Position numbers and translations under genes: made by a program
The notes under the pieces: model-generated
Seen by the model: the letters and a program-made list of their open reading frames with translations, nothing else
Told to the model about the DNA's origin: nothing
Databases searched by the model: none
Source: an uncultured virus (IMG/VR IMGVR_UViG_3300002835_000125)
Taxonomy: Duplodnaviria > Heunggongvirae > Uroviricota > Caudoviricetes
IMG/VR virus record: IMGVR_UViG_3300002835_000125
Length of the DNA stretch: 64,000 bases
Reading direction: 5' to 3' (one strand)
Shown here: in pieces, positions 4,669-33,104 of the stretch
Layout of the letters: every line of letters starts with the position of its first letter
Numbering within the stretch: the stretch's first letter is position 1

Positions 4669-5208
4669 ATGGAAAAACTTATAGCAACGATATATTGTCT
4701 TGATAAAGAAGATACTATAACTTATGGAGAACTTATGAAAGATAAACTTGGAAAAGATATTGTTATTCCAAAAAGATTAGCAAGTTTAAAACTTCGTAAA
4801 AATAAATTAATTCAAGAAGATTATATGCATAAAGATTATATAGCTGGAATTGACCCATACTTAGATGATAATAGTGTTCATTTTTATCAAAGGGAAGGAG
4901 ATATGGATAATCTTCCTGAATCTACTATTACATATTCCAATACATCTCCAGAAGAATTAACAGAAATATTTATGAAACAACCTATTCAGTTACAACAATA
5001 TGTAACTATAGAAGAGGCTATAAAGAAGTTAACAGAAGAATTATCACAGGATGAAGAACATTATATAGCTTGGAAAGCTGCTATTGCTATGTCTTTTAAA
5101 GATGAAGTGTATAGATTAAGACCTGTTACTAATAGATGGAATAGTGACATTGTTCATAAAATTGCTAATAAAGCAGCAGATAACTTTTTAAAACAATTAA
5201 TAGGATGA
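4669..5208 (+). CDS. hypothetical protein
   Basis: ORF track; TATATTTG element at 4598-4605 upstream. Confidence 0.75.
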   Translation: MEKLIATIYCLDKEDTITYGELMKDKLGKDIVIPKRLASLKLRKNKLIQEDYMHKDYIAGIDPYLDDNSVHFYQREGDMDNLPESTITYSNTSPEELTEIFMKQPIQLQQYVTIEEAIKKLTEELSQDEEHYIAWKAAIAMSFKDEVYRLRPVTNRWNSDIVHKIANKAADNFLKQLIG

Positions 5209-5468: not shown

Positions 5469-5996
5469 ATGAAAACAAAAATTTTTGAAGCTTTAGGACA
5501 AGCTTCTATGTGTTGGTCTGAAATTCCAAACGGAGTATTTGATTCTTCTAAAGTATTAGAAGTAGGTAATGAACTACTAAAAAGTGTTTATACTACAGAA
5601 GGAGTACAAGAAATAATAAATGATTTAGATGGTTCTGAAATAGAACTTATTAATGATAAGTGGCATAGTTTCAAAGAACTTTATGAATTCAGGAAGATGT
5701 ATAATGCTGCTTTGTTCAATGAATGGGCTAATCATACTTGGGTTAGAAAAATACAAGGGGATACTGTAACAGGTATAAAATTTAGTGTCCATAAGTCATG
5801 GAAGCATTATGATGGAGAACTTTGTTTTGGTGGAGGATGGTTTATAGTTAGTGCTATGTTACCTACAGGATTGATTTCCAATCATTATGAAGCTAAAGAT
5901 TGGGATATGTTTAAGATTCCTGAAGTTGAGAAAGCTCTTTTCGAGTATGATGGACATACAGGACAAGATGTATTGAATCGTTTAAAACAATTATAA
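5469..5996 (+). CDS. phage protein, WDGH-like domain
   Basis: HSFKELYEFR...HKSWKHYDG...GGGWFIV...ISNHY...YDGHT pattern recalled from this phage family. Confidence 0.7.
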   Translation: MKTKIFEALGQASMCWSEIPNGVFDSSKVLEVGNELLKSVYTTEGVQEIINDLDGSEIELINDKWHSFKELYEFRKMYNAALFNEWANHTWVRKIQGDTVTGIKFSVHKSWKHYDGELCFGGGWFIVSAMLPTGLISNHYEAKDWDMFKIPEVEKALFEYDGHTGQDVLNRLKQL

Positions 5997-6206: not shown

Positions 6207-6419
6207 ATGAAAAATAAAGAATTGTACGGATATATTTTTTCCTATAATTGTTTTACAGATAGATGGATGGCAACAAATAGAGATAATTATTTTAAGCTCT
6301 GGAATGAAGGTTTAAAAGAAGAGGTTCTTGAAAGTAGAAGTATAAATTCTCTTCAGGAGTTGATTATTAAGGGTAAAGGAGATTTAAGAACAATTTTAAA
6401 ATTAAAGGAGGCTATATGA
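6207..6419 (+). CDS. hypothetical protein
   Basis: ORF in operon. Confidence 0.7.
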   Translation: MKNKELYGYIFSYNCFTDRWMATNRDNYFKLWNEGLKEEVLESRSINSLQELIIKGKGDLRTILKLKEAI

Positions 6420-7463: not shown

Positions 7464-7495
7464 TTTGGAAATTTAAACTTTTTTCGTTATTTTAT
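7464..7495 (+). promoter_or_regulatory. putative variant (late?) promoter
   Basis: TTTG-N20-TATTTTAT before the packaging operon. Confidence 0.55.
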
Positions 7496-7503
7496 ATAAA
7501 ACC

Positions 7504-7890
7504 ATGTACTTAATAATTCAAGAGCAAAAACCACATGTACTCAAAGACAAATATTCTGTCTTAAAGGTTTATCTATATTTACAAATGCTGAAAAAAGGAC
7601 ATGCTCCTTTGGATAATGATATTGACATACTATGTGAATTATTCTTTGCTGGAGGTTATTGTGGTATAAAGGAAAAGAAATGGTTTTATAAAACAGTGAT
7701 AGACAAGAAGTTACGTAATTCTGAACAGAGTATAAGTAATAAACTAACCGAATTCTTTGAAAAGAAGGGATATATATTTAGGACTGATAGAAATTGTGTA
7801 GAGCTTAATTACGATTTCTTCCCAAAAGAAGGGATAGTAGGAGATGTAGAAGGAATTGGTTTATCTTTAAAGGTGGCACATGCAAGCTGA
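7504..7890 (+). CDS. hypothetical protein, possibly winged-helix DNA-binding
   Basis: First gene of the packaging operon; NSEQSISNKLTEFFEKKGYI segment. Confidence 0.7.
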   Translation: MYLIIQEQKPHVLKDKYSVLKVYLYLQMLKKGHAPLDNDIDILCELFFAGGYCGIKEKKWFYKTVIDKKLRNSEQSISNKLTEFFEKKGYIFRTDRNCVELNYDFFPKEGIVGDVEGIGLSLKVAHAS

Positions 7891-9686: not shown

Positions 9687-10192
9687 TTGATTATGATACG
9701 GATACTAAGCAAATACAATTAACCGAAAATGCTTATGTCATTCCTGAATTAAGAAATCTTATAGATAAATATCCAGATAATTATGTACCATATGTTACAT
9801 ACGTATATTTAATGTGTGGATATAATAGCCCTTATATTAATTTACCAGATTCTGAAAGACAGGAGCAGGTAATATTTGATGTTCAAGAATTATTCACAGA
9901 CTTTGACCCCTTCGAACCATTATTAGAAAAGGCGGTGGAAAAACTGAGTGACTTATATAAAAGTCCAATTATGAAATTAGCTGAAGAGCTTGGTAATGAA
10001 GTGGATAGATTCAGAAAGATTCTAAAAACTGAAGCTATTGTAACTGGACCAGAAGGTAATTTCAGAGAAAGAATGGCTCTCTTAGAGAAAATTGATAAGA
10101 TATCAAGTTCTTATGCAAAGGTAAAAGAACAAGCAAAAAAAGAAATGGATGATGATGGTATACGTGGTGACCATGAAATAGGTATGTACTAA
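9671..10192 (+). CDS. putative terminase small subunit
   Basis: Helical protein coupled directly to TerL; positional inference. Confidence 0.5.
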   Translation: MLPKIIDYDTDTKQIQLTENAYVIPELRNLIDKYPDNYVPYVTYVYLMCGYNSPYINLPDSERQEQVIFDVQELFTDFDPFEPLLEKAVEKLSDLYKSPIMKLAEELGNEVDRFRKILKTEAIVTGPEGNFRERMALLEKIDKISSSYAKVKEQAKKEMDDDGIRGDHEIGMY

Positions 10193-12492
10193 TGTTTTTT
10201 AAATTCCCCTTAAAAATACCAAGATGGAAATCTTCTACTAATGAGTGGGATTACCAAATTTTTGATAATAAACAATCCTTTATAGATTATATGTGGAAGC
10301 AATTTAAACTTCCCGGAGAATATAATTTAAGAGAAGATATTAACTTAAAGATACAAGAAGAGGGTATTAAATATACCAAAACTGCTAATCCAGAAACATT
10401 TCAAGGTGGTCGTTACCACAATTATGTCAAGGGTAGCATACATTATAAGAATTGGCACACTGCTCAAAAAGAGAAGGTTTTATGTGGAGTGATATATGAT
10501 GACTTTTATATCCCCCCTTATTATCATTGGTATCTAAACTTTTGCCCATTCTTTGATGACATAAAAATGTTATATAGATTTGGAGATGTGTGGGATACAG
10601 ATTTATGGTATTTCCACTATCTCACTTTATGTCTATTACTAGGTAAGAATGTTTATGGTGTTAAGGGTAGACAGAAAGGATTTTCCTTGAAACATATGGC
10701 ATTTCTATATTGGGGATATTGTTGGTTTGGAGGTGGTGTATATACTGTAGGAGCATATGATGAGAGTCTTGTTGATAAATCTTGGATATTCTTAGAGAGA
10801 TATAGAAATCACATAAATAAATACACTCCTTGGAAAAGAGGACCAATTAAACCTAAATCCTTAGAATGGGAAGAACTTATTGAAACCAAGAAGGGTGGAA
10901 CAGTTGGAGGTGGAGCAAAACTCTCTGGAGTTACATTCAAACAAAGTCCTACAAAAGATGTAGGGGGTGTTCAAACAATATTCAATTATGAAGAACCCGG
11001 AGTTAGCCCTACAATAACCCAAACATACTCTTTTATAAAACCTGCTATGAAAAAGGGGTCTGTAAAGACTGGTATATTTGTAGCATGTGGTTCTGTAGGT
11101 AATCTTGAACAAGCAGAAGGATTAAGACAGATGGTATATAATCCTGCTTCTTATGATGGTCTTCCTGTTAAAAATATATGGGATGAAGATGCTGGACCAG
11201 ATGACACTTGTGCCATATTTATATCAGAAGCATATTCTATGCTTGGTGAAGATTATCACTTTGATGATTATGGTAAAGTGGTTGGTGGTTCTGGTAGACC
11301 ATTCATTGATAATGCTGGTAATTCAGATATTAAATTATCATTAGAATGGATTGCTGAAAATGATAAACTTCTTCAAGTCTCTAAAAAGAGTGAAGAAGAA
11401 AAGCAAATTGATAGGTCTCAGAAATGTACAAGCTTAAAGCAAGCATTTGCTGAAAGAAAAATATCCTACTTTCCTGTTGCCAAATTAAAAAGGAGACAAG
11501 AACAATTAAAAATATTAGAGAGTGAAGGAAAGTTAAAGCATCGTAAAGGGTTATTATATATTGATAATGACGGTGTTATAAAACTTGATGAAAAGGATAA
11601 AGGAGAAGAACATGGTTATCCTATTAATCCAGCTTGGGAAGATAAAAGAGGATGTGTTACAATAATTCATGATTGTGAACCAAATCCTGCTAAATATAGA
11701 TATTTTGTTGGAGTGGATACAGTGGAAGCAGATGAAACAACTACATCTGATTCTATACAAACAGTTGATGTATTTGAAGGACAAACCACTGTTAAGGATG
11801 AACATGGTAGAATATTAAGAATAGAAGGTGATAGACTTGTTGCTACTTATAGAGGTAGATTTAATCCTGTAGATGGTGGAAATGAACAAGCATGGCTCTT
11901 AATAAAAAAGTATAATGGTTACTGCTATCAAGAAAGGAGTAAGCCAAACTTTCAATCTTACATGAAGAGAAATGGTTGGGCTGAACAATATTTAGCTAAG
12001 GAATCAGAAGTGCAAATATTCAAAGATGTAAACTTCTATAAAGAAAAGCCTGATAGTGGATTATATGGATTTACTATCACTTTAAATAATCAAATATGGG
12101 AAACCTTTAAGAAGATAGGAAGTGAATATCTTCATTCTGAATATGATAGGCAAACTATAACAACTGAAGAAGGGGATGAGAAATCAATAAAAATATATAC
12201 AGGTATAGATAGAATTGAAGACTATTGGTTATTGGAAGAATTTATTCAATATGCAGAAGATAAATCTGGAAGACCTAAAAAGAATACAGATAGGTTAATT
12301 TCATTCTTTGCAGCTTTGATACTTTCGAAGGTGTTCCAAAATAGTCACAACTCTATAAGAATAGAACATAGTCAAAAAGATGTACCTAAAAAGGTATATT
12401 CTCCGAAACCTGTAAATATGCTTGGTGGTGTGAGTAAAAAAACGTATAATAATACTAAAGGGGTCAGAAAAAGACCTATATCAATGATATAA
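10192..12492 (+). CDS. terL: terminase large subunit
   Basis: Walker A KGRQKGFS, Walker B FNYEEPG, nuclease FVGVD and NTDR; upstream of portal. Confidence 0.93.
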   Translation: MFFKFPLKIPRWKSSTNEWDYQIFDNKQSFIDYMWKQFKLPGEYNLREDINLKIQEEGIKYTKTANPETFQGGRYHNYVKGSIHYKNWHTAQKEKVLCGVIYDDFYIPPYYHWYLNFCPFFDDIKMLYRFGDVWDTDLWYFHYLTLCLLLGKNVYGVKGRQKGFSLKHMAFLYWGYCWFGGGVYTVGAYDESLVDKSWIFLERYRNHINKYTPWKRGPIKPKSLEWEELIETKKGGTVGGGAKLSGVTFKQSPTKDVGGVQTIFNYEEPGVSPTITQTYSFIKPAMKKGSVKTGIFVACGSVGNLEQAEGLRQMVYNPASYDGLPVKNIWDEDAGPDDTCAIFISEAYSMLGEDYHFDDYGKVVGGSGRPFIDNAGNSDIKLSLEWIAENDKLLQVSKKSEEEKQIDRSQKCTSLKQAFAERKISYFPVAKLKRRQEQLKILESEGKLKHRKGLLYIDNDGVIKLDEKDKGEEHGYPINPAWEDKRGCVTIIHDCEPNPAKYRYFVGVDTVEADETTTSDSIQTVDVFEGQTTVKDEHGRILRIEGDRLVATYRGRFNPVDGGNEQAWLLIKKYNGYCYQERSKPNFQSYMKRNGWAEQYLAKESEVQIFKDVNFYKEKPDSGLYGFTITLNNQIWETFKKIGSEYLHSEYDRQTITTEEGDEKSIKIYTGIDRIEDYWLLEEFIQYAEDKSGRPKKNTDRLISFFAALILSKVFQNSHNSIRIEHSQKDVPKKVYSPKPVNMLGGVSKKTYNNTKGVRKRPISMI

Positions 12493-24756: not shown

Positions 24757-25902
24757 ATGGCTTGTAGTCCTTATAATCCTTGTCACACACCAACTTGTGA
24801 CACATGTAATACAGTAAATCCTTGTTATGACAATTGTGGTTGTTTAAATCCAACTACATTTGATTGTATAACAAATTTCAAAAAAGCATATAACAATATC
24901 CCTTTAGAAATAAATGCTACAGGGCAAGATATGCTTGATAATCTTGATGAAACAGTAGCTGAAATAGAAAGTAATCTATATAAAGTAAAGGTGGATGATA
25001 GTGATACTTGTCCTGATACACTCTTAGATAAGATTACAGCAGGTAGCAATATTACAGTATCTGTAGCAGGAAGTGGATGTAATAGAAAACTTACTATAAC
25101 AGCAGGGAATGGTATAACAACTGCTCCTGATATATATGCTAAAGTTTCATCTAATGACACTACATCTGATTATCTTGGTAATAAATTTGTAGATGGTACA
25201 TATGTTAAGAAATCTGTAAATAGTCCCGGTGGAAATGAAACAATTGATTTTGACATTACAATAGCTGATTTAATCTCTACTGATAGTGGAAACCAATTAG
25301 GACAAGGAGTAGATGGTAAATTAAAAACTTTGTTCTCTGCACCTGATGGTTCTGAAACTAAAATTAACCCTGTTGCAAATTCTGGAATTACCCTAACTGG
25401 TACAGGTACTAATGGTGACCCTTATCTTATAGGAACTAATGGAGCATTATTTGCTGTTCAACCATATACAGATGGTGTATGGAGAACATTAACCTTTAAC
25501 AATGGTAGCAATGCTAATGTGACACTTAATTCTCAATCTGTTAAATATCGTATGAGATACGATGGTTCTGTAGAGTTTAAAGGAAGCTTAAATTATAGTG
25601 TAACATTCAATGTAGCAAGTACTAATAAGATAGCTATAACAGCAGCTAACATCACTACAGGAGGCTCAACAAACCTTCCTTCAACAGCCTTTGATAGGGT
25701 TGCTAATCTAAGACATTATATGACGTTCAGTAGCCCTAATACAATAAGTGCTACACCAAAATTAACAGGTTATAATGTAAACATATTAGCTGCTGCTTTA
25801 AATAGTCCAGCACCAATTCAAATAGAATTTATGAATGACACTGCTGAAACTAAAAATATAGTAGTAACAATGGATGGAGCAATATATCATCCTAATATTT
25901 AA
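24757..25902 (+). CDS. putative tail fibre protein
   Basis: Cys-rich N-terminus; repeated KV...DT...L..K units; ISTDSGNQLGQGVDGKL; beta-rich head domain. Confidence 0.65.
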   Translation: MACSPYNPCHTPTCDTCNTVNPCYDNCGCLNPTTFDCITNFKKAYNNIPLEINATGQDMLDNLDETVAEIESNLYKVKVDDSDTCPDTLLDKITAGSNITVSVAGSGCNRKLTITAGNGITTAPDIYAKVSSNDTTSDYLGNKFVDGTYVKKSVNSPGGNETIDFDITIADLISTDSGNQLGQGVDGKLKTLFSAPDGSETKINPVANSGITLTGTGTNGDPYLIGTNGALFAVQPYTDGVWRTLTFNNGSNANVTLNSQSVKYRMRYDGSVEFKGSLNYSVTFNVASTNKIAITAANITTGGSTNLPSTAFDRVANLRHYMTFSSPNTISATPKLTGYNVNILAAALNSPAPIQIEFMNDTAETKNIVVTMDGAIYHPNI

Positions 25903-25953
25903 GAATTTAGAAAGAACGTAGCTTTTTTTGGTTTTTGCTGCATATGTTTTTCG

Positions 25954-25975
25954 GAGCCGTTCTCGGCTCTTTTTT
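25954..25975 (+). terminator. intrinsic terminator
   Basis: GAGCCG-TTCT-CGGCTC plus T6. Confidence 0.85.
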
Positions 25976-26010
25976 CTTTTTATTAACATTTTAAATTGTA
26001 ATTTTGTATT

Positions 26011-26265
26011 ATGATAATAACAGATAACATATTCTATTTAGATAATGGAGTAGAAAGACAAATAAATGTATTTAACGAAAGTGACCCACACTATAGATGT
26101 TTTGAATCAGATGGACAGAAACAAATAATCTTTGGAAGAAGTTCATTTGTAAAAACTGAAAATGGAGAAGTAGATTTCTTCTCTTTAAGCAAAGAAGAAA
26201 AAGATAAATTCTGTAATAACACTAATTTTATAAAAACTTATAAAAAATATGATATACATAGGTAA
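26011..26265 (+). CDS. hypothetical protein (probably leaderless)
   Basis: TAATTTTG at 25999-26006, then 4 nt, then ATG. Confidence 0.7.
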   Translation: MIITDNIFYLDNGVERQINVFNESDPHYRCFESDGQKQIIFGRSSFVKTENGEVDFFSLSKEEKDKFCNNTNFIKTYKKYDIHR

Positions 26266-26312
26266 AGAATTAAGATGTTGGAAACACGTTAACAATGAAT
26301 TAACACAACATA

Positions 26313-26344
26313 TTTGATTATATAAAATTATTACACTATATTAC
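26313..26344 (+). promoter_or_regulatory. promoter of tRNA operon 1
   Basis: TTTG-N20-TATATTAC. Confidence 0.65.
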
Positions 26345-26353
26345 AATATAATT

Positions 26354-26434
26354 ATGAAATACGTAGTAACACATACAACATGTCCACAGTGGTTTACACC
26401 GACAATATCGGGAGGGGCTTTGTATGTATACTAA
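26354..26434 (+). CDS. attenuator leader peptide 1 (MKYVVTHTTCPQWFTPTISGGALYVY)
   Basis: Between promoter and terminator; codons 6-17 encode only T,H,C,P,Q,W,F, the downstream tRNA set. Confidence 0.85.
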   Translation: MKYVVTHTTCPQWFTPTISGGALYVY

Positions 26435-26456
26435 GAAATAGCTGTGTAGTAACATC

Positions 26457-26484
26457 AACCCTCTGAGAAATCGGAGGGTTTTTT
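26457..26484 (+). terminator. attenuator terminator 1
   Basis: AACCCTCTGA-GAAA-TCGGAGGGTT-TTTT; 5' arm can pair alternatively with 26408-26426. Confidence 0.88.
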
Positions 26485-26488
26485 ATTT

Positions 26489-26582
26489 CTAGTTGTGGAC
26501 GAGAGGTTTATGTCATTAGTCTTGGAAACTAATATCTGCACACAGATGGTGTGGGTCAAGGGTTCGACTCCCTTCAACTAGA
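26489..26582 (+). tRNA. tRNA-Pro(TGG), long variable region
   Basis: CTAGTTG/CAACTAG acceptor; TTAGT-CTTGGAA-ACTAA; T arm AAGGG-TTCGACT-CCCTT. Confidence 0.85.
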
Positions 26583-26592
26583 CTTTTAATTT

Positions 26593-26665
26593 GCCTTACG
26601 AAGCTTTTATGGATGAAGTGTACTCTTGTAAAGTACGGAACTGGACTCGATTTCCAGCTAAGGCT
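26593..26665 (+). tRNA. tRNA-Thr(TGT)
   Basis: GCCTTA/TAAGGC; GTACT-CTTGTAA-AGTAC; T arm CTGGA/TCCAG. Confidence 0.85.
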
Positions 26666-26671
26666 CAAATT

Positions 26672-26744
26672 GGAGAAGAAGCTAACTTGGTAGAAGCGTT
26701 AGACTGAAAATCTAAAGGAGTTGGTCCGAAACCAACCTTCTCCG
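26672..26744 (+). tRNA. tRNA-Phe(GAA)
   Basis: GGAGAAG/CTTCTCC; TTAGA-CTGAAAA-TCTAA. Confidence 0.92.
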
Positions 26745-26746
26745 CT

Positions 26747-26821
26747 AAATACTTAATGAAACAATAAAGGAACAAAGGGGTCCGGGTAGAAATACGTTAG
26801 CGCCCATTGATTTAAGTATTT
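26747..26821 (+). ncRNA. unknown structured RNA in tRNA operon 1
   Basis: 10 bp closing stem AAATACTTAA/TTAAGTATTT; inner CAAT/ATTG, GGG/CCC, GTA-GAAA-TAC. Confidence 0.5.
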
Positions 26822-26826
26822 TTTAT

Positions 26827-26898
26827 TCCTATGTGGTGTAATGTAACATCCACGCCTTTGAAGCGTTGAGATTGGTGGTTCAAGTCCATCTATAGGAA
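26827..26898 (+). tRNA. tRNA-Gln(TTG)
   Basis: TCCTATG/TATAGGA; ACGC-CTTTGAA-GCGT; GGTGG-TTCAAGT-CCATC. Confidence 0.88.
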
Positions 26899-26900
26899 CT

Positions 26901-26975
26901 GTCTAAGTGTTCTGACTGGATTCAGATGAATGACTGTGAATTATTCAAAAAGGGTTCGAATCCCACTTAGACCCA
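26901..26975 (+). tRNA. tRNA-His(GTG)
   Basis: GTCTAAG/CTTAGAC; AATGA-CTGTGAA-TTATT; GGG-TTCGAAT-CCC. Confidence 0.85.
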
Positions 26976-26979
26976 ATAT

Positions 26980-27052
26980 ATAGGTACTCATGGCTGGCGT
27001 GATAAACAATCTCCAAAATTGTGATTTGTTGAATCGTTCTCAACTACCTATG
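26980..27052 (+). tRNA. tRNA-Trp(CCA)
   Basis: ATAGGTA/TACCTAT; ACAAT-CTCCAAA-ATTGT; divergent T loop ATCGTTC. Confidence 0.8.
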
Positions 27053-27108
27053 CTTTATAGGTCTATATACCTATATTTATAGATTATAGGTTTTAAAGGC
27101 TATAATTT

Positions 27109-27184
27109 GTCCAGATACCTAATATTGATTTTGGGATAGGTCTGCAACACCTATTAAATATCGGTTTGATTCCGATTCTGGACT
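27109..27184 (+). tRNA. tRNA-Cys(GCA)
   Basis: GTCCAGA/TCTGGAC, U73; TAGGT-CTGCAAC-ACCTA. Confidence 0.85.
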
Positions 27185-27222
27185 CTATTAAAAATAAATT
27201 TTTTTATTTGAAAAAGATTTCG

Positions 27223-27230
27223 TATATTTG
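27223..27230 (+). promoter_or_regulatory. -7 element of tRNA operon 2 promoter
   Basis: TATATTTG, canonical TAnnTTTG. Confidence 0.7.
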
Positions 27231-27255
27231 CTGTATAAATAATAAACATTCAACA

Positions 27256-27336
27256 ATGCAACTTATAAATATGATAGTGGATAACGGTATTGGAGCAAAC
27301 GAGAAGTTTGGCTTCAGGTATTCTATTGTCGTATAA
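27256..27336 (+). CDS. attenuator leader peptide 2 (MQLINMIVDNGIGANEKFGFRYSIVV)
   Basis: Codons 4-17 encode only I,N,M,V,D,G,A,E,K, the downstream tRNA set. Confidence 0.85.
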   Translation: MQLINMIVDNGIGANEKFGFRYSIVV

Positions 27337-27357
27337 TTACTTACTAACCCGATAAAG

Positions 27358-27388
27358 AATCCTGAGGCCCATCGCTTCGGGATTTTTT
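27358..27388 (+). terminator. attenuator terminator 2
   Basis: AATCCTGAGGC-CCATC-GCTTCGGGATT-TTTT; 27350-27369 can pair alternatively with 27310-27331. Confidence 0.88.
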
Positions 27389-27392
27389 GTTT

Positions 27393-27467
27393 AATCTCGT
27401 AGCAAAATGTGGCTTTGCTTCAGCCTTTTAAGCTGACTAAAAATGGGTTCGACTCCCATCGGGATTA
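27393..27467 (+). tRNA. tRNA-Lys(TTT)
   Basis: AATCTCG/CGGGATT; TCAGC-CTTTTAA-GCTGA. Confidence 0.9.
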
Positions 27468-27473
27468 CTAAAT

Positions 27474-27546
27474 GGCTCTTTAGCTCAGTGGTAGAGCTTC
27501 GTTTTTACATGACGAGAAAGCACTTGTCCGATTCAAGTAAGAGCTA
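27474..27546 (+). tRNA. tRNA-Val(TAC)
   Basis: GGCTCTT/AAGAGCT; TCGTT-TTTACAT-GACGA. Confidence 0.88.
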
Positions 27547-27547
27547 C

Positions 27548-27877
27548 ATGAAATATATATTAGGAATACTGTTCTTATTAATTATAGGAACAGCAACAAA
27601 AACAGGAATTGCAAGTTATTATCATAACAAGTTTCAAGGAAGGAAAACTGCTAGTGGTGAATTATATGATAAACATAAATTAACAGCAGCTTCTAATCAA
27701 TATAAACTTGGTGATAGTGTAAGAGTAACAAATACTAAGAATGGTAAAAGTGTAAATGTTACAGTAAATGACCGTATGGCTAATAATGGAAGACTAATTG
27801 ATTTAAGTAGAAGTGCTGCTGATAGTCTTGGTTTTATTAAGGATGGTTTAGTTGTAGTTAAAGTTAGTATATTATAA
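27548..27877 (+). CDS. rlpA: RlpA-family lytic transglycosylase (DPBB domain) with hydrophobic N-terminus
   Basis: GIASYY...GRKTASGE.YD...LTAA...VRVTN..NGKSV.V.VNDR...RLIDLSRSAA; start revised to 27548 because the track N-terminus overlaps two tRNAs. Confidence 0.92.
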   Translation: MKYILGILFLLIIGTATKTGIASYYHNKFQGRKTASGELYDKHKLTAASNQYKLGDSVRVTNTKNGKSVNVTVNDRMANNGRLIDLSRSAADSLGFIKDGLVVVKVSIL

Positions 27878-27882
27878 ATATC

Positions 27883-27956
27883 TGTTTTGTAGCTCAGTGG
27901 CCTAGAGCGTGAAGCTGTTAACTTCAGGGTCGTGGGTTCGAATCCCATCAGGACAG
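27883..27956 (+). tRNA. tRNA-Asn(GTT)
   Basis: TGTTTTG/CAGGACA; TGAAG-CTGTTAA-CTTCA. Confidence 0.93.
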
Positions 27957-27961
27957 CATAT

Positions 27962-28046
27962 TGTGGGATGGTGTAATTGGTAACACGCAAGGCTCATAAC
28001 CTTGAGACAGAAAATGCTAGCAAGGGTTCGAATCCCTTTCCCGCAA
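27962..28046 (+). tRNA. tRNA-Met(CAT), initiator-like acceptor, long variable loop
   Basis: TGTGGGA/TCCCGCA; CAAGG-CTCATAA-CCTTG; 17 nt variable region. Confidence 0.85.
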
Positions 28047-28051
28047 CACAA

Positions 28052-28124
28052 GCAGTATAGGCAGATTGGCTTATGCACCTCACTTCCAATGAGGACATGG
28101 TGGGTTCGATTCCTACATGCTGCA
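28052..28124 (+). tRNA. tRNA-Gly(TCC)
   Basis: GCAGTAT/ATGCTGC; CCTCA-CTTCCAA-TGAGG. Confidence 0.9.
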
Positions 28125-28171
28125 CAAAAATTATATTATGAAAAATTCTTTAAAAGAAGGTGAAGAGATAT

Positions 28172-28244
28172 ACTCTCATCTTCTAGTTGGTCAGGATAAC
28201 ACACTTTCAATGTGTTGACACGGGTTCAAGCCCCGTTGGGAGTG
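28172..28244 (+). tRNA. tRNA-Glu(TTC)
   Basis: ACTCTCA/TGGGAGT; ACACA-CTTTCAA-TGTGT. Confidence 0.9.
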
Positions 28245-28254
28245 CTTTAAAAAT

Positions 28255-28328
28255 GGTAGATGGGTCTGCTGGATGAAGATGTCGGTCTGTCGAACCGAAG
28301 ATGATGGGTTTGAATCCCATATCTACCG
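28255..28328 (+). tRNA. tRNA-Asp(GTC)
   Basis: GGTAGAT/ATCTACC, G73; TCGGT-CTGTCGA-ACCGA. Confidence 0.88.
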
Positions 28329-28333
28329 CATTA

Positions 28334-28408
28334 GGACTTGTAGCCAAGTTGGTAAAGGCCCTTGACTCATAATCAAGAGATGCAATGGTTCGAGACCATT
28401 CAAGTCCA
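28334..28408 (+). tRNA. tRNA with CAT anticodon, probably Ile2 (lysidine, reads AUA)
   Basis: GGACTTG/CAAGTCC; CTTGA-CTCATAA-TCAAG resembles bacterial Ile2; leader 2 has two ATA codons. Confidence 0.8.
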
Positions 28409-28413
28409 CATAT

Positions 28414-28485
28414 AGGAATATAGTAGAAGGGTTATCACAATTGACTGATACTCAATTAATATAGGTTCGAATCCTATTGTTCCTA
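28414..28485 (+). tRNA. tRNA-Ile(GAT)
   Basis: AGGAATA/TGTTCCT; ATTGA-CTGATAC-TCAAT. Confidence 0.9.
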
Positions 28486-28490
28486 CATTT

Positions 28491-28563
28491 GGGGATAAAG
28501 CTCTAGCGGATGAGCATCTGCCTTGCACGTAGAAGGTTACGATTTCGAGTGTCGTTATCTCCA
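28491..28563 (+). tRNA. tRNA-Ala(TGC)
   Basis: GGGGATA/TATCTCC with G3-U70; TCTGC-CTTGCAC-GTAGA. Confidence 0.9.
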
Positions 28564-28585
28564 CATAGGGGTTCGGAAAATAATT

Positions 28586-28623
28586 AGCTACATCTCTTTA
28601 TTAATAAGGGTTGTAGCTTTTTT
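28586..28623 (+). terminator. terminator ending tRNA operon 2
   Basis: AGCTACA...TGTAGCT stem plus T tract. Confidence 0.75.
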
Positions 28624-28664
28624 ATTGTCTCAAATATTGTAATAATTTGCGACATAATTTATTT

Positions 28665-28695
28665 TTTGTCAGGTTATAACCTTTCTTTATCTTTG
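28665..28695 (+). promoter_or_regulatory. Bacteroidota sigma-A type promoter
   Basis: TTTG-N19-TATCTTTG. Confidence 0.75.
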
Positions 28696-28699
28696 TTTT

Positions 28700-28867
28700 A
28701 TGAATTGGCATATACTACCTGTAAATGATATAGAATATCATGAAGAATCTACCACTTGTAAGTGTGAACCACAAGTAGAATTTATAGAAGGAGATATGCT
28801 AATTATACAAAACTCTTTTGATGGTAGAGAAGGAGTTGAATGGGTAAATGAAATTTTAAATAAATAA
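28700..28867 (+). CDS. small His/Cys-containing phage protein (55 aa; not in track)
   Basis: MNWHILPVNDIEYHEESTTCKCEPQVEFIEGDMLIIHNSFDGREGVEWVNEILNK; has its own promoter. Confidence 0.8.
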   Translation: MNWHILPVNDIEYHEESTTCKCEPQVEFIEGDMLIIQNSFDGREGVEWVNEILNK

Positions 28868-28899
28868 TTTGGAAAATTCAAAATAATTTCGTATATTTG
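28868..28899 (+). promoter_or_regulatory. promoter of tRNA operon 3
   Basis: TTTG-N20-TATATTTG, perfect consensus. Confidence 0.85.
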
Positions 28900-28903
28900 C
28901 TTT

Positions 28904-28972
28904 ATGAAAACATTATCACTATATAGTTCCTCAAGTTATCTCTTATTAAGAGACAGGGATTGTATTGTGTAA
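28904..28972 (+). CDS. attenuator leader peptide 3 (MKTLSLYSSSSYLLLRDRDCIV)
   Basis: Codons 4-15 encode only L,S,Y, the downstream tRNA set. Confidence 0.88.
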   Translation: MKTLSLYSSSSYLLLRDRDCIV

Positions 28973-29000
28973 ATAGCTATAAGCTTTTAGCTCCCCTAAC

Positions 29001-29032
29001 AATCCCTTGTCTTTCCAGATGAGGGATTTTTT
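29001..29032 (+). terminator. attenuator terminator 3
   Basis: AATCCCTTGTCT-TTCC-AGATGAGGGATT-TTTT; 28999-29012 can pair alternatively with 28951-28963. Confidence 0.88.
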
Positions 29033-29035
29033 ATT

Positions 29036-29108
29036 GGCTCTATGACGTAATCGGCAACCGTCTTGGCTTTAGACCCCAAGTTTTCCAGTTCGAATCTGGA
29101 TAGAGCTA
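29036..29108 (+). tRNA. tRNA-Leu(TAG) lacking a long variable arm
   Basis: GGCTCTA/TAGAGCT, A73; CTTGG-CTTTAGACC-CCAAG centred on TAG; TCCAG-TTCGAAT-CTGGA. Confidence 0.8.
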
Positions 29109-29163
29109 CAAATTAGCAGCCCTCTATGGATAATTCTATTGACGAATAGAATATGGGCAAAAT

Positions 29164-29246
29164 ATTCCTGTGGTGAAATGGTGAGACACGGCAGACTTAA
29201 AATCTGCTACGGAGAAACGTTGCTGGTTCGAATCCAGTCAGGAATA
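29164..29246 (+). tRNA. tRNA-Leu(TAA)
   Basis: ATTCCTG/CAGGAAT; GCAGA-CTTAAAA-TCTGC; variable arm present. Confidence 0.93.
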
Positions 29247-29249
29247 CTT

Positions 29250-29334
29250 AGCAGAATGTCAGAGTGGTTTATTGTGATAGTCTTGAAAACTATTGGGTGT
29301 AAAAGCTCCTTGGGTTCGAATCCCAATTTTGCTG
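29250..29334 (+). tRNA. tRNA-Ser(TGA)
   Basis: AGCAGAA/TTTTGCT, G73; ATAGT-CTTGAAA-ACTAT. Confidence 0.9.
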
Positions 29335-29338
29335 CAAT

Positions 29339-29427
29339 AGAAGATTGTGTGAGTGGCTTAAACAACCAGTTTGCTAAACTGGCGAGGGATTAAAACACCT
29401 CCATTGGTTCAAATCCAATATCTTCTG
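29339..29427 (+). tRNA. tRNA-Ser(GCT)
   Basis: AGAAGAT/ATCTTCT, G73; CCAGT-TTGCTAA-ACTGG. Confidence 0.92.
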
Positions 29428-29432
29428 CATAT

Positions 29433-29525
29433 TGTGTTGTAACGGCAGTAGACTGTAAATCTACTCTGCATAACAAATTGTCGTACTGGTCTCGCAGTAA
29501 GAAGGTTCGAATCCTTTCAACACAA
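29433..29525 (+). tRNA. tRNA-Tyr(GTA), non-canonical (no D-arm in normal position, 36 nt variable region)
   Basis: TGTGTTG/CAACACA, A73; GTAGA-CTGTAAA-TCTAC; GAAGG-TTCGAAT-CCTTT; only 8 nt between acceptor and anticodon arms. Confidence 0.75.
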
Positions 29526-29551
29526 CATTAACTTATTATTAACTATAGACA

Positions 29552-29583
29552 TTTGACTATATAAAGTAAATAGTCTATTTTTG
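29552..29583 (+). promoter_or_regulatory. promoter inside an imperfect palindrome
   Basis: TTTG-N20-TATTTTTG; inverted repeat ATAGAC...GTCTAT spans it. Confidence 0.75.
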
Positions 29584-29587
29584 TATT

Positions 29588-29725
29588 GTACAAATTCCCA
29601 ACCGTCATAGGAGATTTGTATTTAATTAACAATAACTATATATTCGATTGATGTAACTTTGTTCTTAGGAACGCAACTTGACGGTTGGGACCCCTTGTAC
29701 TTAATTGTATGAGGGGATTTTTTTT
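29588..29725 (+). ncRNA. putative small RNA or structured leader with terminator
   Basis: Perfect 12 bp stem 29596-29607/29679-29690; terminator CCCCTTGTAC/GTATGAGGGG plus T tract. Confidence 0.6.
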
Positions 29726-29827
29726 GCAGACATCCGAGGTTTTTCTTTCCTTCTTTTACGTCCTCCACAAAAATAAAAGAGTGTCATTAAGATAGTATAG
29801 TATATTACACTTGGTATATTATATGAT

Positions 29828-30056
29828 AGGATGTAGAAAAATCAGCAATGTCTAAGGTGACAACTGGACCTGAACGAAATTATCAGCAAAAACTACATTC
29901 CTCCGTGAAAAATAAAATCATCTTATAGCTGATAATTATTTGTAGATGATTGGCAGGACATGGGAATCTTAGGTTGACAATATGTTTATAGGAGTATGTG
30001 TTAACTATAAATACATTATCCCAACAGGGGAAGACCTTGTTCAGGATAGACCCCCT
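29828..30056 (+). ncRNA. putative multi-pseudoknot RNA
   Basis: Several hairpins plus three 8-10 bp crossing helices; no credible ORF. Confidence 0.55.
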
Positions 30057-30085
30057 TATGTAAATTAACAATAAAATGTAAAACT

Positions 30086-30391
30086 ATGAAAAACCACAAA
30101 ATGACATCATATCAATTCATGATGTTAATGCAAGAATTACCAAATCCAATGTATTATGCTAGAAATGGAGCTAATGTAGGATTTAGAGTAAAAGTAGGAT
30201 ATTTAAAGAAGTCCATTGATAATACTCCTACAATATTAATAAATCCTAATTCTCAACCTATGAAGATGGCAGAAGTTGAACAGGTAGAATTTGAATTAGT
30301 TCCGAACAATACTATTTGGTATTGGCAACCTGTAGAACCAATTACTATAATAACATTAGATAAGAAAGAGTACATTAAAAATTGGGAATAA
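30086..30391 (+). CDS. hypothetical protein
   Basis: ORF with A-rich start context. Confidence 0.7.
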   Translation: MKNHKMTSYQFMMLMQELPNPMYYARNGANVGFRVKVGYLKKSIDNTPTILINPNSQPMKMAEVEQVEFELVPNNTIWYWQPVEPITIITLDKKEYIKNWE

Positions 30392-30699
30392 TGAATATAA
30401 TAAAATGGTATAAAAGAGTATTTAGAATTCTTACTATAGAAGAATGTAAAGAATTAGGATTAGTACATTCTCATAATATATATGGTGATAGTATTAATCA
30501 TTTAAATTGTAGAAGTATTTGGAAAGATGAAAAGGATAGAACATATAGGTGTGAAAGTTTAATACCTACTATAGGAGTACTAGATTTATGGATTTTAAAA
30601 ATGAAAAATCAAGATAAAGTACAACCAATAACTCAAGAAGAATATAATAAAATAAGAGATGAAGAATTTGAAAGGCTCAAGACTTTATATTCGCCTTAA
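30391..30699 (+). CDS. hypothetical protein (ATG 30391, TAATG coupled)
   Basis: ORF track; NIYGDSINHLNCRSIW motif. Confidence 0.7.
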   Translation: MNIIKWYKRVFRILTIEECKELGLVHSHNIYGDSINHLNCRSIWKDEKDRTYRCESLIPTIGVLDLWILKMKNQDKVQPITQEEYNKIRDEEFERLKTLYSP

Positions 30700-30736
30700 C
30701 AAATAATAGTGTAATTTTGGCTTCTAAATAAAAATC

Positions 30737-31057
30737 ATGAAAGTATTAACAGAAGGACATTATTATGAACTAGAACATTTTGAAAAAGATGAATCGGGTA
30801 GTTCAGAAAGTTTACAATTTATCGAAAAGGTTCCAAAAGGTGAAGGGAAAGTACAAGATTTAGTAACAGTAAATAATGGAACTACAAATGAAGAAGTTCT
30901 TAAAGTTCTAATAAATAGAATGAACTATTTACAAGCAAAATTTCCATGTAGAGAAAATGCTATTGTAATTACAAAACTTGAAGAAAGTCTAATGTGGTTA
31001 GAAAAAAGAACTGTTGATAGAATAGCTAGAAATGTAGAAGGTAAACAATTAAAATAA
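30737..31057 (+). CDS. Tad1/Acb2-like immune signal sponge protein
   Basis: LQF...NGTTNEEVLKVLINRMNYLQAKFPCRENAIVITKLEESLMWLEKRTVDRIARNVEG matches the Tad1 helical hairpin as recalled. Confidence 0.78.
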   Translation: MKVLTEGHYYELEHFEKDESGSSESLQFIEKVPKGEGKVQDLVTVNNGTTNEEVLKVLINRMNYLQAKFPCRENAIVITKLEESLMWLEKRTVDRIARNVEGKQLK

Positions 31058-31065
31058 AATAAACT

Positions 31066-31281
31066 ATGAAAAAACAATTATTTACGTATGCTGTATTATT
31101 CCATCAGCATGAAGAGAAAGAGGGAAAATTGGAATACAAAGAAACACTTATTCTTGTAGAACCAAAAGTGATTTTAGCAAAGAATAGTAATGAAGTAGCA
31201 TTCAAAGCTACAAGAGACGTACCAGAACAATATGCAGGATTTTCAGAAAATGTAGAAATTATAGTACGCCCTTTTAAATAG
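31066..31281 (+). CDS. small conserved phage protein ending VRPFK
   Basis: LFTYAVLFH...VILAK...VEIIVRPF. Confidence 0.75.
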   Translation: MKKQLFTYAVLFHQHEEKEGKLEYKETLILVEPKVILAKNSNEVAFKATRDVPEQYAGFSENVEIIVRPFK

Positions 31282-31291
31282 CTCCCCCTTA

Positions 31292-31471
31292 ATGTGGGAT
31301 AGTGGGAGCAAAGGAGTATGGGAACAATTAGTAGACCCACCTAAATATAAAAGTACTTTCCAAAATTATATGGGTACAACTACAAATTTAGTAGGACAAG
31401 CAATAAACACTTTGACAACAGGAACATCAATATCATATAACATGGCAGATGCAATGTCATTCACAAATTAA
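31292..31471 (+). CDS. hypothetical protein (59 aa; not in track)
   Basis: Open frame filling the gap. Confidence 0.45.
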   Translation: MWDSGSKGVWEQLVDPPKYKSTFQNYMGTTTNLVGQAINTLTTGTSISYNMADAMSFTN

Positions 31472-31480
31472 AATCAAATT

Positions 31481-31645
31481 ATGAAAACACTAACAAATCT
31501 ATTTACAAGCAACCCATCTTACATGAAATGGGGTAATGAAAGAATTGCAAAAAGAACAGGGCTGAAACCAAAAACAGTAGAGAAATTCAAAAAGAATCCC
31601 TTGTATAAGATAATGAAAACCCAATATCTTAACGAGATTAATTAG
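31481..31645 (+). CDS. small HTH-like protein (54 aa; not in track)
   Basis: MKTLTNLFTSNPSYMKWGNERIAKRTGLKPKTVEKFKK...; good start context. Confidence 0.65.
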   Translation: MKTLTNLFTSNPSYMKWGNERIAKRTGLKPKTVEKFKKNPLYKIMKTQYLNEIN

Positions 31646-31695
31646 GAAATGTCGCAAAAAAGGCGTATATTGTTATGATATGCGCTTTTTTATTT

Positions 31696-31767
31696 GGCTC
31701 CTTAGTTAAATGGATATAACCGCAGAATTCTAATCTGCATTTGGGAGTTCGATTCTCTCAGGGGCTA
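31696..31767 (+). tRNA. tRNA-Arg(TCT)
   Basis: GGCTCCT/AGGGGCT; GCAGA-ATTCTAA-TCTGC; GGGAG-TTCGATT-CTCTC. Confidence 0.9.
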
Positions 31768-31787
31768 CGAAATCTTAAAAATAAATT

Positions 31788-33104
31788 ATGATTATAACAC
31801 AAACAATGCAAAAGTTTATTGACAATCCGAAGATGTTAGAGAGTGGATATTGCTCAAAAGCAAAATTAGCTCAAAGACTTGGAACAACAATAGACGATAT
31901 TACAGAATCAAGGTTTAAAGTGAAACAAATGATGTCTTCATTAGACCATGCTCAAGAGTTCTTTAAAGAATTAAAATCAGAAATTGTTAATGAACATACT
32001 ACAAGAGTAGATAATGAAAAGGGTACTATAACATCGGATGTAGAAACTACATTTGAACCCAAGAATGATATTGAATTAGCTGAATTACATAAGATTGATT
32101 TAACAAAATACAAAATAAGTACATATTGGTCTAAACTAAAGAGCAATGGTAAATTCACTTCATCTGTATTAGCTACATTAAGAAATATTGATAAGGATAT
32201 TCCTAAACAAAAAGAATCATTAATAGAAGAAATAGATGAATATTTTGGTAGTAAAAAAGCTATTGAAAATTATAGATTCTTCACAAGAGAAATTGATAAG
32301 GATAGAAAAACTGCTAAAAATACAGATGGTCAACTATTAGAAATATCCATTCCTGATTTACACATTGGTAAAATGTCTCATAGAGAAGAAACAGGGGAAG
32401 ATTATGATTTAAAAATTGCATCTGCAAGATATAAGAATGCTATAACTCAACTATTAAAAACAGCCAATTTAGATAATGTATCTGATATATTACTACCCAT
32501 TGGTAATGACTTGTTCAATGTAGATAATCAGTTCTCAACTACTACAGGTGGTACACCACAGGATTGTGATAGTAGGTTCCACAAGATGGTAGGAGCAGCA
32601 AAAGAACTCCTTATAAATACAATAACAGGGTTAAGTGCATTTGCAAGAGTACATGTTCTTATAGTACCAGGCAATCATGATGAAGTTACAACATTTATGT
32701 TAGGTGAAATATTAGAAGCATGGTTTCATAATGATAGTAACATAACTGTAAATAATACAGCAAAACTTAGAAAATACTTCCAATTTGGAAAGAATTCTTT
32801 CCTTTATACTCATGGAGACAAAGAAAAACATGGGGATTTAGGATTGATATTTGCTACAGAAGAACCTAGACTTTGGGCTGATACTAAATACAGATTTGTA
32901 AAACTTGGTCATCTTCACAAGCAAAAGAAAATAGAATATATAACAACAGACACACTTCAAGGGTTCCAAATAGAAATACTTCCATCACTAAGTTCTGCTG
33001 ATAAGTGGCATTATGGAAAAGGTTTCTTAGGAGCAAAGCAAGCAAAAGCCTATCTCTATGATAAAGAACTTGGGGAAATTGCACAGTATACACACACTGT
33101 TTAA
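31788..33104 (+). CDS. calcineurin-like metallophosphoesterase with N-terminal HTH-like region
   Basis: DLHIG, GND, PGNHD, HGD, GHLH motifs. Confidence 0.88.
   Translation: MIITQTMQKFIDNPKMLESGYCSKAKLAQRLGTTIDDITESRFKVKQMMSSLDHAQEFFKELKSEIVNEHTTRVDNEKGTITSDVETTFEPKNDIELAELHKIDLTKYKISTYWSKLKSNGKFTSSVLATLRNIDKDIPKQKESLIEEIDEYFGSKKAIENYRFFTREIDKDRKTAKNTDGQLLEISIPDLHIGKMSHREETGEDYDLKIASARYKNAITQLLKTANLDNVSDILLPIGNDLFNVDNQFSTTTGGTPQDCDSRFHKMVGAAKELLINTITGLSAFARVHVLIVPGNHDEVTTFMLGEILEAWFHNDSNITVNNTAKLRKYFQFGKNSFLYTHGDKEKHGDLGLIFATEEPRLWADTKYRFVKLGHLHKQKKIEYITTDTLQGFQIEILPSLSSADKWHYGKGFLGAKQAKAYLYDKELGEIAQYTHTV

Follow-up and report, generated by a model that had tools for sequence, protein, structure and literature searches.

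Why phages carry transfer RNA (tRNA) genes, and how these genes are used, is a long-running question, and to our knowledge their expression is usually treated as unregulated. Here, we ask what controls the tRNA genes of an uncultured virus of the Caudoviricetes (IMG/VR record IMGVR_UViG_3300002835_000125). The DNA analyzed is a stretch of 64,000 nucleotides (nt), hereafter the window, which corresponds to bases 79232-143231 of the 155,874-bp record (rated complete by CheckV). All tRNA genes of the window lie on the plus strand at 26489-31768, and the features described below lie on the same strand. We observe three units at this locus, each composed of a short leader open reading frame (ORF), an intrinsic terminator and a tRNA array, and both the anatomy of these units and the match between leader codons and downstream tRNAs are real. 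Compared across six phage lineages, the sequences make it quite likely that these elements are ribosome-mediated attenuators that give demand-driven tRNA synthesis, with each array being its own transcription unit.

The leader ORFs are L1 at 26354-26434 (26 amino acids (aa), MKYVVTHTTCPQWFTPTISGGALYVY), L2 at 27256-27336 (26 aa, MQLINMIVDNGIGANEKFGFRYSIVV) and L3 at 28904-28972 (22 aa, MKTLSLYSSSSYLLLRDRDCIV), of which L2 is contained in a longer TTG-start frame (27166-27336). Array 1 (26489-27185) encodes Pro(TGG), Thr(TGT), Phe(GAA), Gln(TTG), His(GTG), Trp(CCA) and Cys(GCA). Array 2 (27393-28564) encodes Lys and Val, followed by a DPBB_1 protein gene (27548-27877) and then Asn, Met, Gly, Glu, Asp, Met/Ile2, Ile and Ala, while array 3 (29036-29525) encodes Leu(TAG), Leu(TAA), Ser(TGA), Ser(GCT) and a Tyr(GTA)-like gene. 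A first-pass annotation, made from these letters alone, had described 22-26 aa leaders matched to their own arrays, which were said to hold 7, 10 and 5 genes in non-overlapping sets that together cover 19 amino acids. We recover all three ORFs, and the composition of the arrays holds once relaxed and isolated tRNA calls are included. With its defaults, ARAGORN finds 18 tRNAs across the three arrays, plus Arg. The Thr, His and Trp tRNAs (26593-27053) are called solely at relaxed thresholds, with tRNA-His scoring 27.5 bits in Rfam, under the cut-off of 29, and the Tyr gene (29433-29525), which is non-canonical in having no D arm, attains 34.6 bits only in a search confined to its own 131 bases.

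Each leader contains an unbroken run of 12-14 codons solely for amino acids of its own array. The sensing run of L1, THTTCPQWFTPT, spans codons 6-17 (26369-26404), with 12/12 codons being strict cognates of array 1 tRNAs and 7/7 tRNAs having a codon in the run. The run of L2, INMIVDNGIGANEK, spans codons 4-17 (27265-27306; 13/14 strict cognates, 10/10 tRNAs), and that of L3, LSLYSSSSYLLL, spans codons 4-15 (28913-28948; 10/12 strict cognates, or 12/12 if U34 superwobble is allowed, and 5/5 tRNAs). Over the three runs, 35/38 codons are strict wobble cognates of array tRNAs (38/38 if U34 reads the whole box), and each of the 22 array tRNAs has a cognate codon in its own leader. This correspondence extends to isoacceptors: codons are present for both Leu tRNAs (TTA, CTA), both Ser tRNAs (TCA, AGT) and both Ile readers (ATT, ATA), where one of the two CAT tRNAs is assumed to be Ile2. 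Among four-box codons, 13/16 are NNA or NNG versus 7.6 expected from phage usage (P ~0.005).

To place these runs against a background, we collected all 931 ATG-initiated ORFs of 15-45 aa in six frames of the 155,874-bp genome. Ranked by the longest run of amino acids from its own set, each leader is first of the 931, with 12 residues versus 7 in the next best ORF for L1, 14 versus 10 for L2 and 12 versus 7 for L3. Based on the composition of the phage proteome, the three sets have frequencies of 0.214, 0.557 and 0.194, which, raised to the run lengths, give probabilities per position of 9e-9, 3e-4 and 3e-9 for L1, L2 and L3, respectively. Every amino acid of a set is present in its own run (7/7, 9/9 and 3/3), and in a cross-matrix of longest runs, the leaders score 12-14 for their own array and 1-3 for the other two.

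The same architecture is found in five other lineages, which are represented by the Cellulophaga phages phi17:2/phi4:1, phi38:1/Calle and phi10:1, the 'Leptolyngbya' phage Lbo-JY46 and the IMG/VR contig L048. The resulting comparison set consists of 16 leaders from six lineages, including the window phage, and in 16/16 the leader is a single-frame ORF bounded by a start and a stop codon. L048 is the one new member among 3 loci retrieved with the DNA bait GGCTCTATGACGTAAT; the bait CCGAYWATATCGGGAGG retrieves 8 loci, of which 1 is a real array, on a phi4:1-like contig, and an MKT-leader bait retrieves 3 loci, all from previously known phages. In phi17:2 (and phi4:1), the leader run QRLHLQELEQP is paired with Pro, Glu, Gln, His, Leu, Leu and Arg(ACG), TKTGITVIDKTKGARA with Ala, Lys, Ile, Gly, Met, Asp, Thr, Val, Arg(TCT) and Met, and YNNSNWSFSY with Tyr, Ser, Ser, Asn, Trp, Phe and Cys. 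In phi38:1 (and Calle), IATDIRTKGVK is paired with a Lys-Ile-Gly-Asp-Thr-Val-Arg(TCT) block, YNNFSWYSNCSFSSYN with Tyr, Ser, Ser, Asn, Trp, Phe and Cys, and LLHQEPLEQLRLP with Pro, Glu, Gln, His, Leu and Arg(ACG). The phi10:1 run, WSYSCFSYSF, holds exactly the amino acids of its Tyr, Trp, Phe, Ser and Cys tRNAs. Between lineages, the leader peptides are unconserved except for the short ends MKT, MQL and ISGG.

The most informative comparison is where arrays have been rearranged. The array gene order of Lbo-JY46 and L048 is homologous to that of the window, with differences: in their Pro-Thr-Phe-Gln-His-Trp array, Arg(ACG) replaces Cys, and the corresponding leaders (TRQHTQFWFPT and TRTHTQQFWFPTR) contain R (CGT) and lack C. 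Cys and Arg(TCT) are instead placed in the Lys array, and the leaders of that array hold C and AGA. The Cellulophaga phages display yet another grouping of the tRNAs, which the leader codons again follow. Arginine allows this to be resolved to the isoacceptor, as AGA is present in 4/4 leaders with tRNA-Arg(TCT) in the array, CGT or CGA is present in 4/4 leaders with tRNA-Arg(ACG) (one also has AGG), and an Arg codon is absent from the run in 8/8 leaders whose array has no Arg tRNA. The first-pass annotation had proposed that leader codons should track tRNA content when arrays are rearranged; they do so in five further lineages, and none of the 16 leaders has a codon content unrelated to its own array. 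The leaders of Calle and phi38:1 are nearly identical, as are those of phi4:1 and phi17:2, and these pairs thus contribute almost no co-variation.

Over all 16 leaders, 169/197 run codons are strict cognates (191/197 with U34 superwobble), 116/121 tRNAs have a codon in their own leader, and 102/107 set amino acids are represented. For 12/16 leaders, 0/3966 background ORFs reach both the run length and the coverage of the leader, with one such ORF for each of three leaders and four for the Lbo-JY46 leader lbo_X2. In cross-matrices of the three phages with three arrays each, leaders scored against their own array give longest runs of 10-16, and all other pairings give 1-5.

Control blocks give a different picture. 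In 33 tRNA blocks of five other phages (the crAss-like cr131_1, PhiCrAssBcn22 and cr116_1, Vibrio phage Achelous and Mycobacterium phage Myrna), the best own-set runs are 0-6 and no pair of leader and terminator is found. Flavobacterium phage immuto, which was inspected by eye, has no matching leader or terminator, and the best runs ahead of 24 chromosomal tRNA blocks from five Bacteroidota genomes are 0-2. tRNA arrays therefore do not carry the element as a rule, and it is not a habit of hosts either, as far as this small sample goes. A possible attenuator at the tRNA-Phe genes of E. coli was also considered; it is unsupported by the one upstream region that was inspected, that of pheV (pheU was left unchecked), as no Phe-rich leader occurs in the 105 nt upstream of pheV; a search of E. 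coli with the phage tRNA-Phe gives no match.

Each sensing run is followed by candidate parts of a switch. Terminator 1 (stem 26457-26480, T tract to 26488; -16.2 kcal/mol) and terminator 3 (stem 29001-29028, T tract to 29035) are recovered by both pattern scan and folding, and terminator 2 (stem 27357-27385, T tract to 27392; -16.2 kcal/mol) by folding, having been missed by the pattern scan. These hairpins (-14.3 to -16.2 kcal/mol) are G+C-rich, with T tracts reaching the first tRNA, which starts 7-8 nt after each stem and not within 5 nt as first described. A strong hairpin with a T tract lies 3-18 nt ahead of the first tRNA in 16/16 leaders.

The putative antiterminator strands of the window, which complement the 5' arm of the terminator, are GGGAGGGG in L1 (26410-26417; duplex -11.0 kcal/mol), GGCTTCAGGTATTCT in L2 (27310-27324; -16.1 kcal/mol) and GAGACAGGGATTG in L3 (28950-28962; -14.1 kcal/mol). 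Dinucleotide shuffles are equally good in 49/500 cases for L1 and in 0/500 for both L2 and L3, and the own terminator arm ranks 7, 1 and 1, respectively, among 16 arms. The complementarity between the 3' strand of the ORF and the 5' arm that the first-pass annotation had claimed for all three is thus clear for L2 and L3 and weak for L1. Across the 16-leader set, the complementary strand occupies codons 15-26, directly after the sensing run, and in 12/16 leaders, the pairing of the 3' part of the ORF with its own 5' arm beats at least 96.6% of dinucleotide shuffles (at most 17/500 as good). When each ORF is compared with all 16 arms, its own arm is first in 7 and among the top four in 13/16, the exceptions being L1 (rank 7), the phi10:1 leader (rank 7) and lbo_X1 (rank 11), and random re-pairing reaches the observed mean arm rank in 0/20000 permutations. 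Sequence comparison shows the co-variation of codons and tRNAs across six lineages and, in most leaders, the complementarity of the switch strand.

We modeled the effect of ribosome position on folding along 10 leaders, with a footprint extending 15 nt upstream and 12 nt downstream of the A-site codon. In truncated transcripts, moving the ribosome from the sensing codons to those that follow lowers the pairing of the terminator 5' arm in 10/10 leaders. In equilibrium folds of the full leader, the predicted terminator probability is ~0 exactly over the sensing run in L2, L3 and the first phi38:1 leader (p38_A), and this effect is partial in the third phi17:2 leader (p17_B3). For the full leader without a ribosome, the sensing codons are predicted to pair with the 3' end of the ORF and the terminator to form (P 0.73-0.97, 10/10 leaders). 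The strand is positioned 4-8 codons before the stop and would be best masked during the last third of the ORF, which revises the earlier proposal that a ribosome at the leader stop does the masking.

The box TAnnTTTG, which we take to be the Bacteroidota -7 promoter element, begins 12-40 nt upstream of the start codon in exact form in 13/16 leaders. In the window, it occurs as TATATTTG at 27223-27230 ahead of L2, inside the repeated 14-mer TTTCGTATATTTGC, and as TATATTTG at 28892-28899 ahead of L3, where it ends 4 nt before the ATG; the 14-mer has 2 copies in the genome, each directly before a leader (L2, L3). No exact box is found within 60 nt upstream of L1, for which the candidate promoter region (26300-26345) offers a sigma-70-like scan match (TTAACA-17-TAAAAT at 26300-26328) and CATATTTG at 26311-26318, a box with one mismatch. 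Of the promoters claimed before each leader, those of L2 and L3 therefore have an exact Bacteroidota-type box, and that of L1 is limited to these two approximate matches. Judging from Bacteroidota promoter geometry, the messenger RNAs of L3, p17_B1 and img_Y3, in which the box ends 4 nt before the ATG, are probably leaderless. Array 2 is closed by a terminator at 28586-28624 (-17.4 kcal/mol, z -3.9, then a T run), and the pattern scan places another downstream of array 3 at 29691-29716. Between the end of array 1 and L2 (27186-27256), there is no terminator (fold z 0.44), and read-through from array 1 would hence meet attenuator 2.

Taken together, these features suggest the following mechanism. 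A host-type promoter, known from its motif, would start a transcript whose first feature is an ORF of 22-26 codons. Codons ~4-17 of this ORF would sample the codons decoded by the tRNAs encoded downstream, and the next 4-8 codons would supply an RNA strand able to pair with the 5' arm of the terminator abutting the first tRNA. If all sampled codons are decoded fast, the ribosome would cover this strand while RNA polymerase makes the terminator, such that the hairpin forms and no tRNAs are made. If any sampled codon is slow because its charged tRNA is scarce, the ribosome would stall upstream, the strand would pair with the 5' arm, and the array would be transcribed. The new tRNAs would then relieve the stall, and each block would in this way regulate the supply of its own tRNAs by negative feedback. 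We infer that the leaders are translated, and the direction and size of the switch and its natural trigger are inferred with it. The attenuation logic that the first-pass annotation had recognized, of the trp, his, thr and pheST type, is supported by the comparison, in which leader codons follow array content.

Several results weigh against this mechanism. In equilibrium folds, the terminator stays high at any ribosome position in 6/10 leaders, including L1, and the switch, if real, must therefore be kinetic, in the manner of classical attenuators. When truncated transcripts are folded without a ribosome, antiterminator pairing is predicted in 9/10 leaders (P 0.47-0.99), such that an 'off' state in the absence of translation, like the 1:2 pairing of trp, is not clearly supported. 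A ribosome at the stop codon covers the antiterminator strand just partly in the 10-leader folding. Complementarity is weak in L1, lbo_X2 and p38_A (45-68/500 shuffles as good) and fails for p17_B2 by the shuffle measure (395/500). The 16-leader counts depend on tRNA lists that include relaxed ARAGORN calls, an Ala tRNA in phi38:1 assigned by eye and a Val tRNA assigned by homology to what is called 'Cys(aca)' in Lbo-JY46, and in the window, several tRNAs depart from the canonical form, and some of them may be nonfunctional. The codon match is also imperfect in places: there are Thr codons in p17_B3, Asn codons in p38_A and Tyr codons in lbo_X2, whose array yielded no Tyr tRNA, and the run of lbo_X1 is interrupted by Ser and Val. 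Finally, RNA-library contigs that cover all three phi38:1 leaders span terminators A and B; such contigs represent either read-through or carried-over DNA and are unable to demonstrate attenuation.

The RNA libraries bear on the question in a limited way. In 4 runs from 2 studies, 78-88% of words of the phi38:1 leader-array region are present. The contigs break across phi38:1 terminator C in all 4 runs (~6322-6385 of locus L041), and in two runs from two studies, a short high-depth contig lies over leader C. RNA contigs are silent on where transcripts end and on their levels, and assemblies are disrupted by the repeated promoter box; the pattern of break and depth at terminator C is accordingly a weak hint, and the contigs count only as presence of the leader region in RNA libraries.

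The alternative that survives best retains the attenuators and changes the natural trigger. Phage tRNAs can offset host defenses that cleave tRNAs, and it is possible, though we consider it doubtful, that anticodon nucleases and similar defenses deplete a tRNA that the matching array then replaces. The circuit would indeed respond to loss of any sampled tRNA, given that 116/121 have a leader codon. However, no defense or counter-defense gene was linked to the arrays in this analysis, and supply and demand in an AT-rich phage (G+C content of 28.9%) or decay of host tRNAs explains the circuit equally well. A link between the arrays and tRNA-cleaving defense is speculation.

A second alternative is an RNA that acts independently of translation, in which the triplets or the leader bind tRNA or protein in the manner of a T-box, or in which a processed 5' leader is combined with the terminator of an upstream unit. 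The leaders are only predicted to be translated, and the hairpins are stable regardless, yet in 16/16 leaders the triplets share a single reading frame that runs from a start to a stop codon, and the run ends just ahead of the terminator-pairing strand, as a ribosome footprint requires. In the region 25500-32500, neither a T-box nor any other cis-regulatory Rfam family matches near the leaders at E <= 1, and the Rfam His, Leu, Thr and Trp leader families likewise give no match at this threshold. Moreover, no terminator closes array 1 ahead of L2, and the terminators are therefore not simply the ends of upstream units. We regard this explanation as very unlikely. It is no more credible that the small ORFs encode functional peptides, or serve to load ribosomes against Rho or RNases, with a composition unrelated to sensing. 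Two leaders do lie inside annotated hypothetical-protein frames of phi17:2 and phi38:1, and a third such frame covers a tRNA-Ser, but the composition of the ORFs shifts exactly with the downstream tRNA set, to the level of the Arg isoacceptor, the peptides are conserved at short ends only, and no such ORFs precede the 33 and 24 control tRNA blocks. That small ORFs, terminators and tRNAs co-occur by chance can be practically dismissed: although the AT-rich genome has many small ORFs (931 of 15-45 aa) and low-complexity ORFs can yield long runs, the leaders rank first three times, each at the right place, background ORFs are absent for 12/16 leaders once coverage is required, and the arrangement recurs with co-variation in six lineages.

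Ribosome-mediated attenuation of the arrays, the reading we favor, has clear relatives among known systems. Leader-peptide attenuation governs amino-acid operons such as trp, his, leu, thr, pheA and ilvGMEDA, as well as pheST, and multivalent leaders (ilvGMEDA, thr) sense two or three amino acids. The E. coli pheST attenuator, with its pheM leader, resembles the phage units in that a gene of the translation apparatus is tuned by cognate codons, but it senses a single amino acid, is chromosomal and has a protein-coding target (phenylalanyl-tRNA synthetase). T-box riboswitches also use a specific tRNA state to switch between terminator and antiterminator ahead of translation-related genes; however, a T-box recognizes uncharged tRNA by direct binding, with a single specifier codon and no ribosome, whereas the phage leaders are in-frame ORFs with many codons. 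As in the attenuators of amino-acid operons, a short ORF with regulatory codons and an intrinsic terminator stand just ahead of the regulated genes, and an alternative pairing takes the 5' arm of the terminator such that slow decoding leads to read-through. Unlike in those operons, the phage units would regulate tRNAs, so that the product is the sensed molecule; one leader samples 3-11 amino acids plus isoacceptors, each once or a few times; three units split 19 amino acids; and the antiterminator strand lies within the ORF, ahead of the stop. The leaderless polycysteine short-ORF attenuators of mycobacteria are similar in that the codon content of a short ORF sets the downstream response, but they respond to one amino acid and control protein-coding operons, and their mechanism is not stated as intrinsic-terminator switching in the part of the preprint available to us (bioRxiv 10.1101/834739). 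Several phage leaders probably also start at, or a few nt from, the 5' end of the transcript, as the mycobacterial leaderless ORFs do.

Although ribosome-mediated attenuation is known, its application to tRNA genes, multiplexed over up to eleven amino acids, would on this sequence comparison be new. In a literature search based on openly readable text, with subscription-only literature outside its scope, we found no description, for phages or bacteria, of tRNA genes controlled by a leader peptide or an attenuator, in agreement with the first-pass annotation, which knew of no multiplexed attenuators on such genes. If the mechanism is correct, phages would meter tRNA synthesis against real-time decoding speed, with the tRNA product closing the loop directly, and a regulatory logic would have been described for the tRNA genes of viruses for the first time. 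The reach of leader-peptide attenuation would widen from amino-acid metabolism to the decoding machinery and from 1-3 to as many as 11 sensed amino acids, and with up to 11 amino acids plus distinct isoacceptors, the element would be the most highly multiplexed attenuator known. The circuit could also double as an alarm for host tRNA-cleaving defenses or host tRNA decay. Cultured phage-host pairs carry the element (Cellulophaga baltica with phi38:1, phi17:2 and phi10:1), which makes the idea directly testable at the bench. Finally, it appears somewhat more probable than the opposite that we are observing portable 'tRNA supply modules' in many unrelated phages, in which a translated codon sampler travels with its block, gauges through each single ribosome whether the infected cell still decodes the codons that this block serves, permits transcription of the block only if decoding is too slow, and is rewritten as tRNAs move.

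The public records of the comparison phages differ from our reading in several places. In phi17:2, gp077 (leader B2; 5762-5881 of locus L024) and gp078 (7703-7804 of L024) are annotated as hypothetical proteins, as are gp066 and gp070 of phi38:1 (4853-4960 and 7494-7676 of locus L037). The frames of gp077, gp066 and gp070 overlap a leader ORF, that of gp078 overlaps an unannotated tRNA-Ser in array B3, and all four are probably misannotations. Some tRNAs are missing or marked as pseudo in the records, including Lys and Ser(TGA) in phi17:2 and several in phi38:1 and phi10:1; tRNA-Cys is marked as pseudo in phi17:2. Lbo-JY46 (PP438436.1, locus L044), which is labeled as a cyanobacterial phage, has Bacteroidota-type boxes (TTTGGTAG ... 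TAnCTTTG) before all three leaders (L044 1780-1840, 5350-5392 and 6080-6120) in a region with a G+C content of 33%, and its host label may deserve a check.

The window phage itself seems to be an isolated lineage. Its terminase, encoded at 10192-12492, is distantly crAss-like or FpV4-like, being ~24-26% identical to the terminases of Flavobacterium FpV4-like and crAss-like phages, and phages that share the tRNA-leader architecture are absent from the 60 listed of 64 terminase matches. No IMG/VR relative could be confirmed through a 381-aa protein, the DPBB_1 protein or TerL. A search with the exonuclease returns 21 loci (32-37% identity) that are uninformative for leader comparison, as ARAGORN finds a single tRNA on the 21 loci and Rfam finds 0-2 tRNAs in each of the 5 largest records. 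The end of the window (49888-63998) holds two very large ORFs, one of 1833 aa and one of more than 2872 aa, the first of which was searched and has no Pfam match.

Some further features of the tRNA region are worth recording. Both tRNA-Pro (26489-26583, 95 nt) and tRNA-Met (27962-28047, 86 nt) have long extra arms. The 20th amino acid is served by a tRNA-Arg(TCT) that stands alone at 31696 (region 31649-31768), behind a strong hairpin at 31657-31690 (z -3.6) that overlaps a 9-codon ORF, MSQKRRILL, with AGG and CGT. We considered this as a fourth attenuator and dropped it, as the ORF overlaps the hairpin and the geometry is unlike that of a sensor. The protein gene within array 2, behind attenuator 2, encodes an RlpA-like lipoprotein (Pfam DPBB_1, 1.9e-17), and by its position, it would share the control of that array. 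A DPBB_1 gene is found at the same array position in Lbo-JY46 (L044 2341-2667) and in L048 (~1660-1794).

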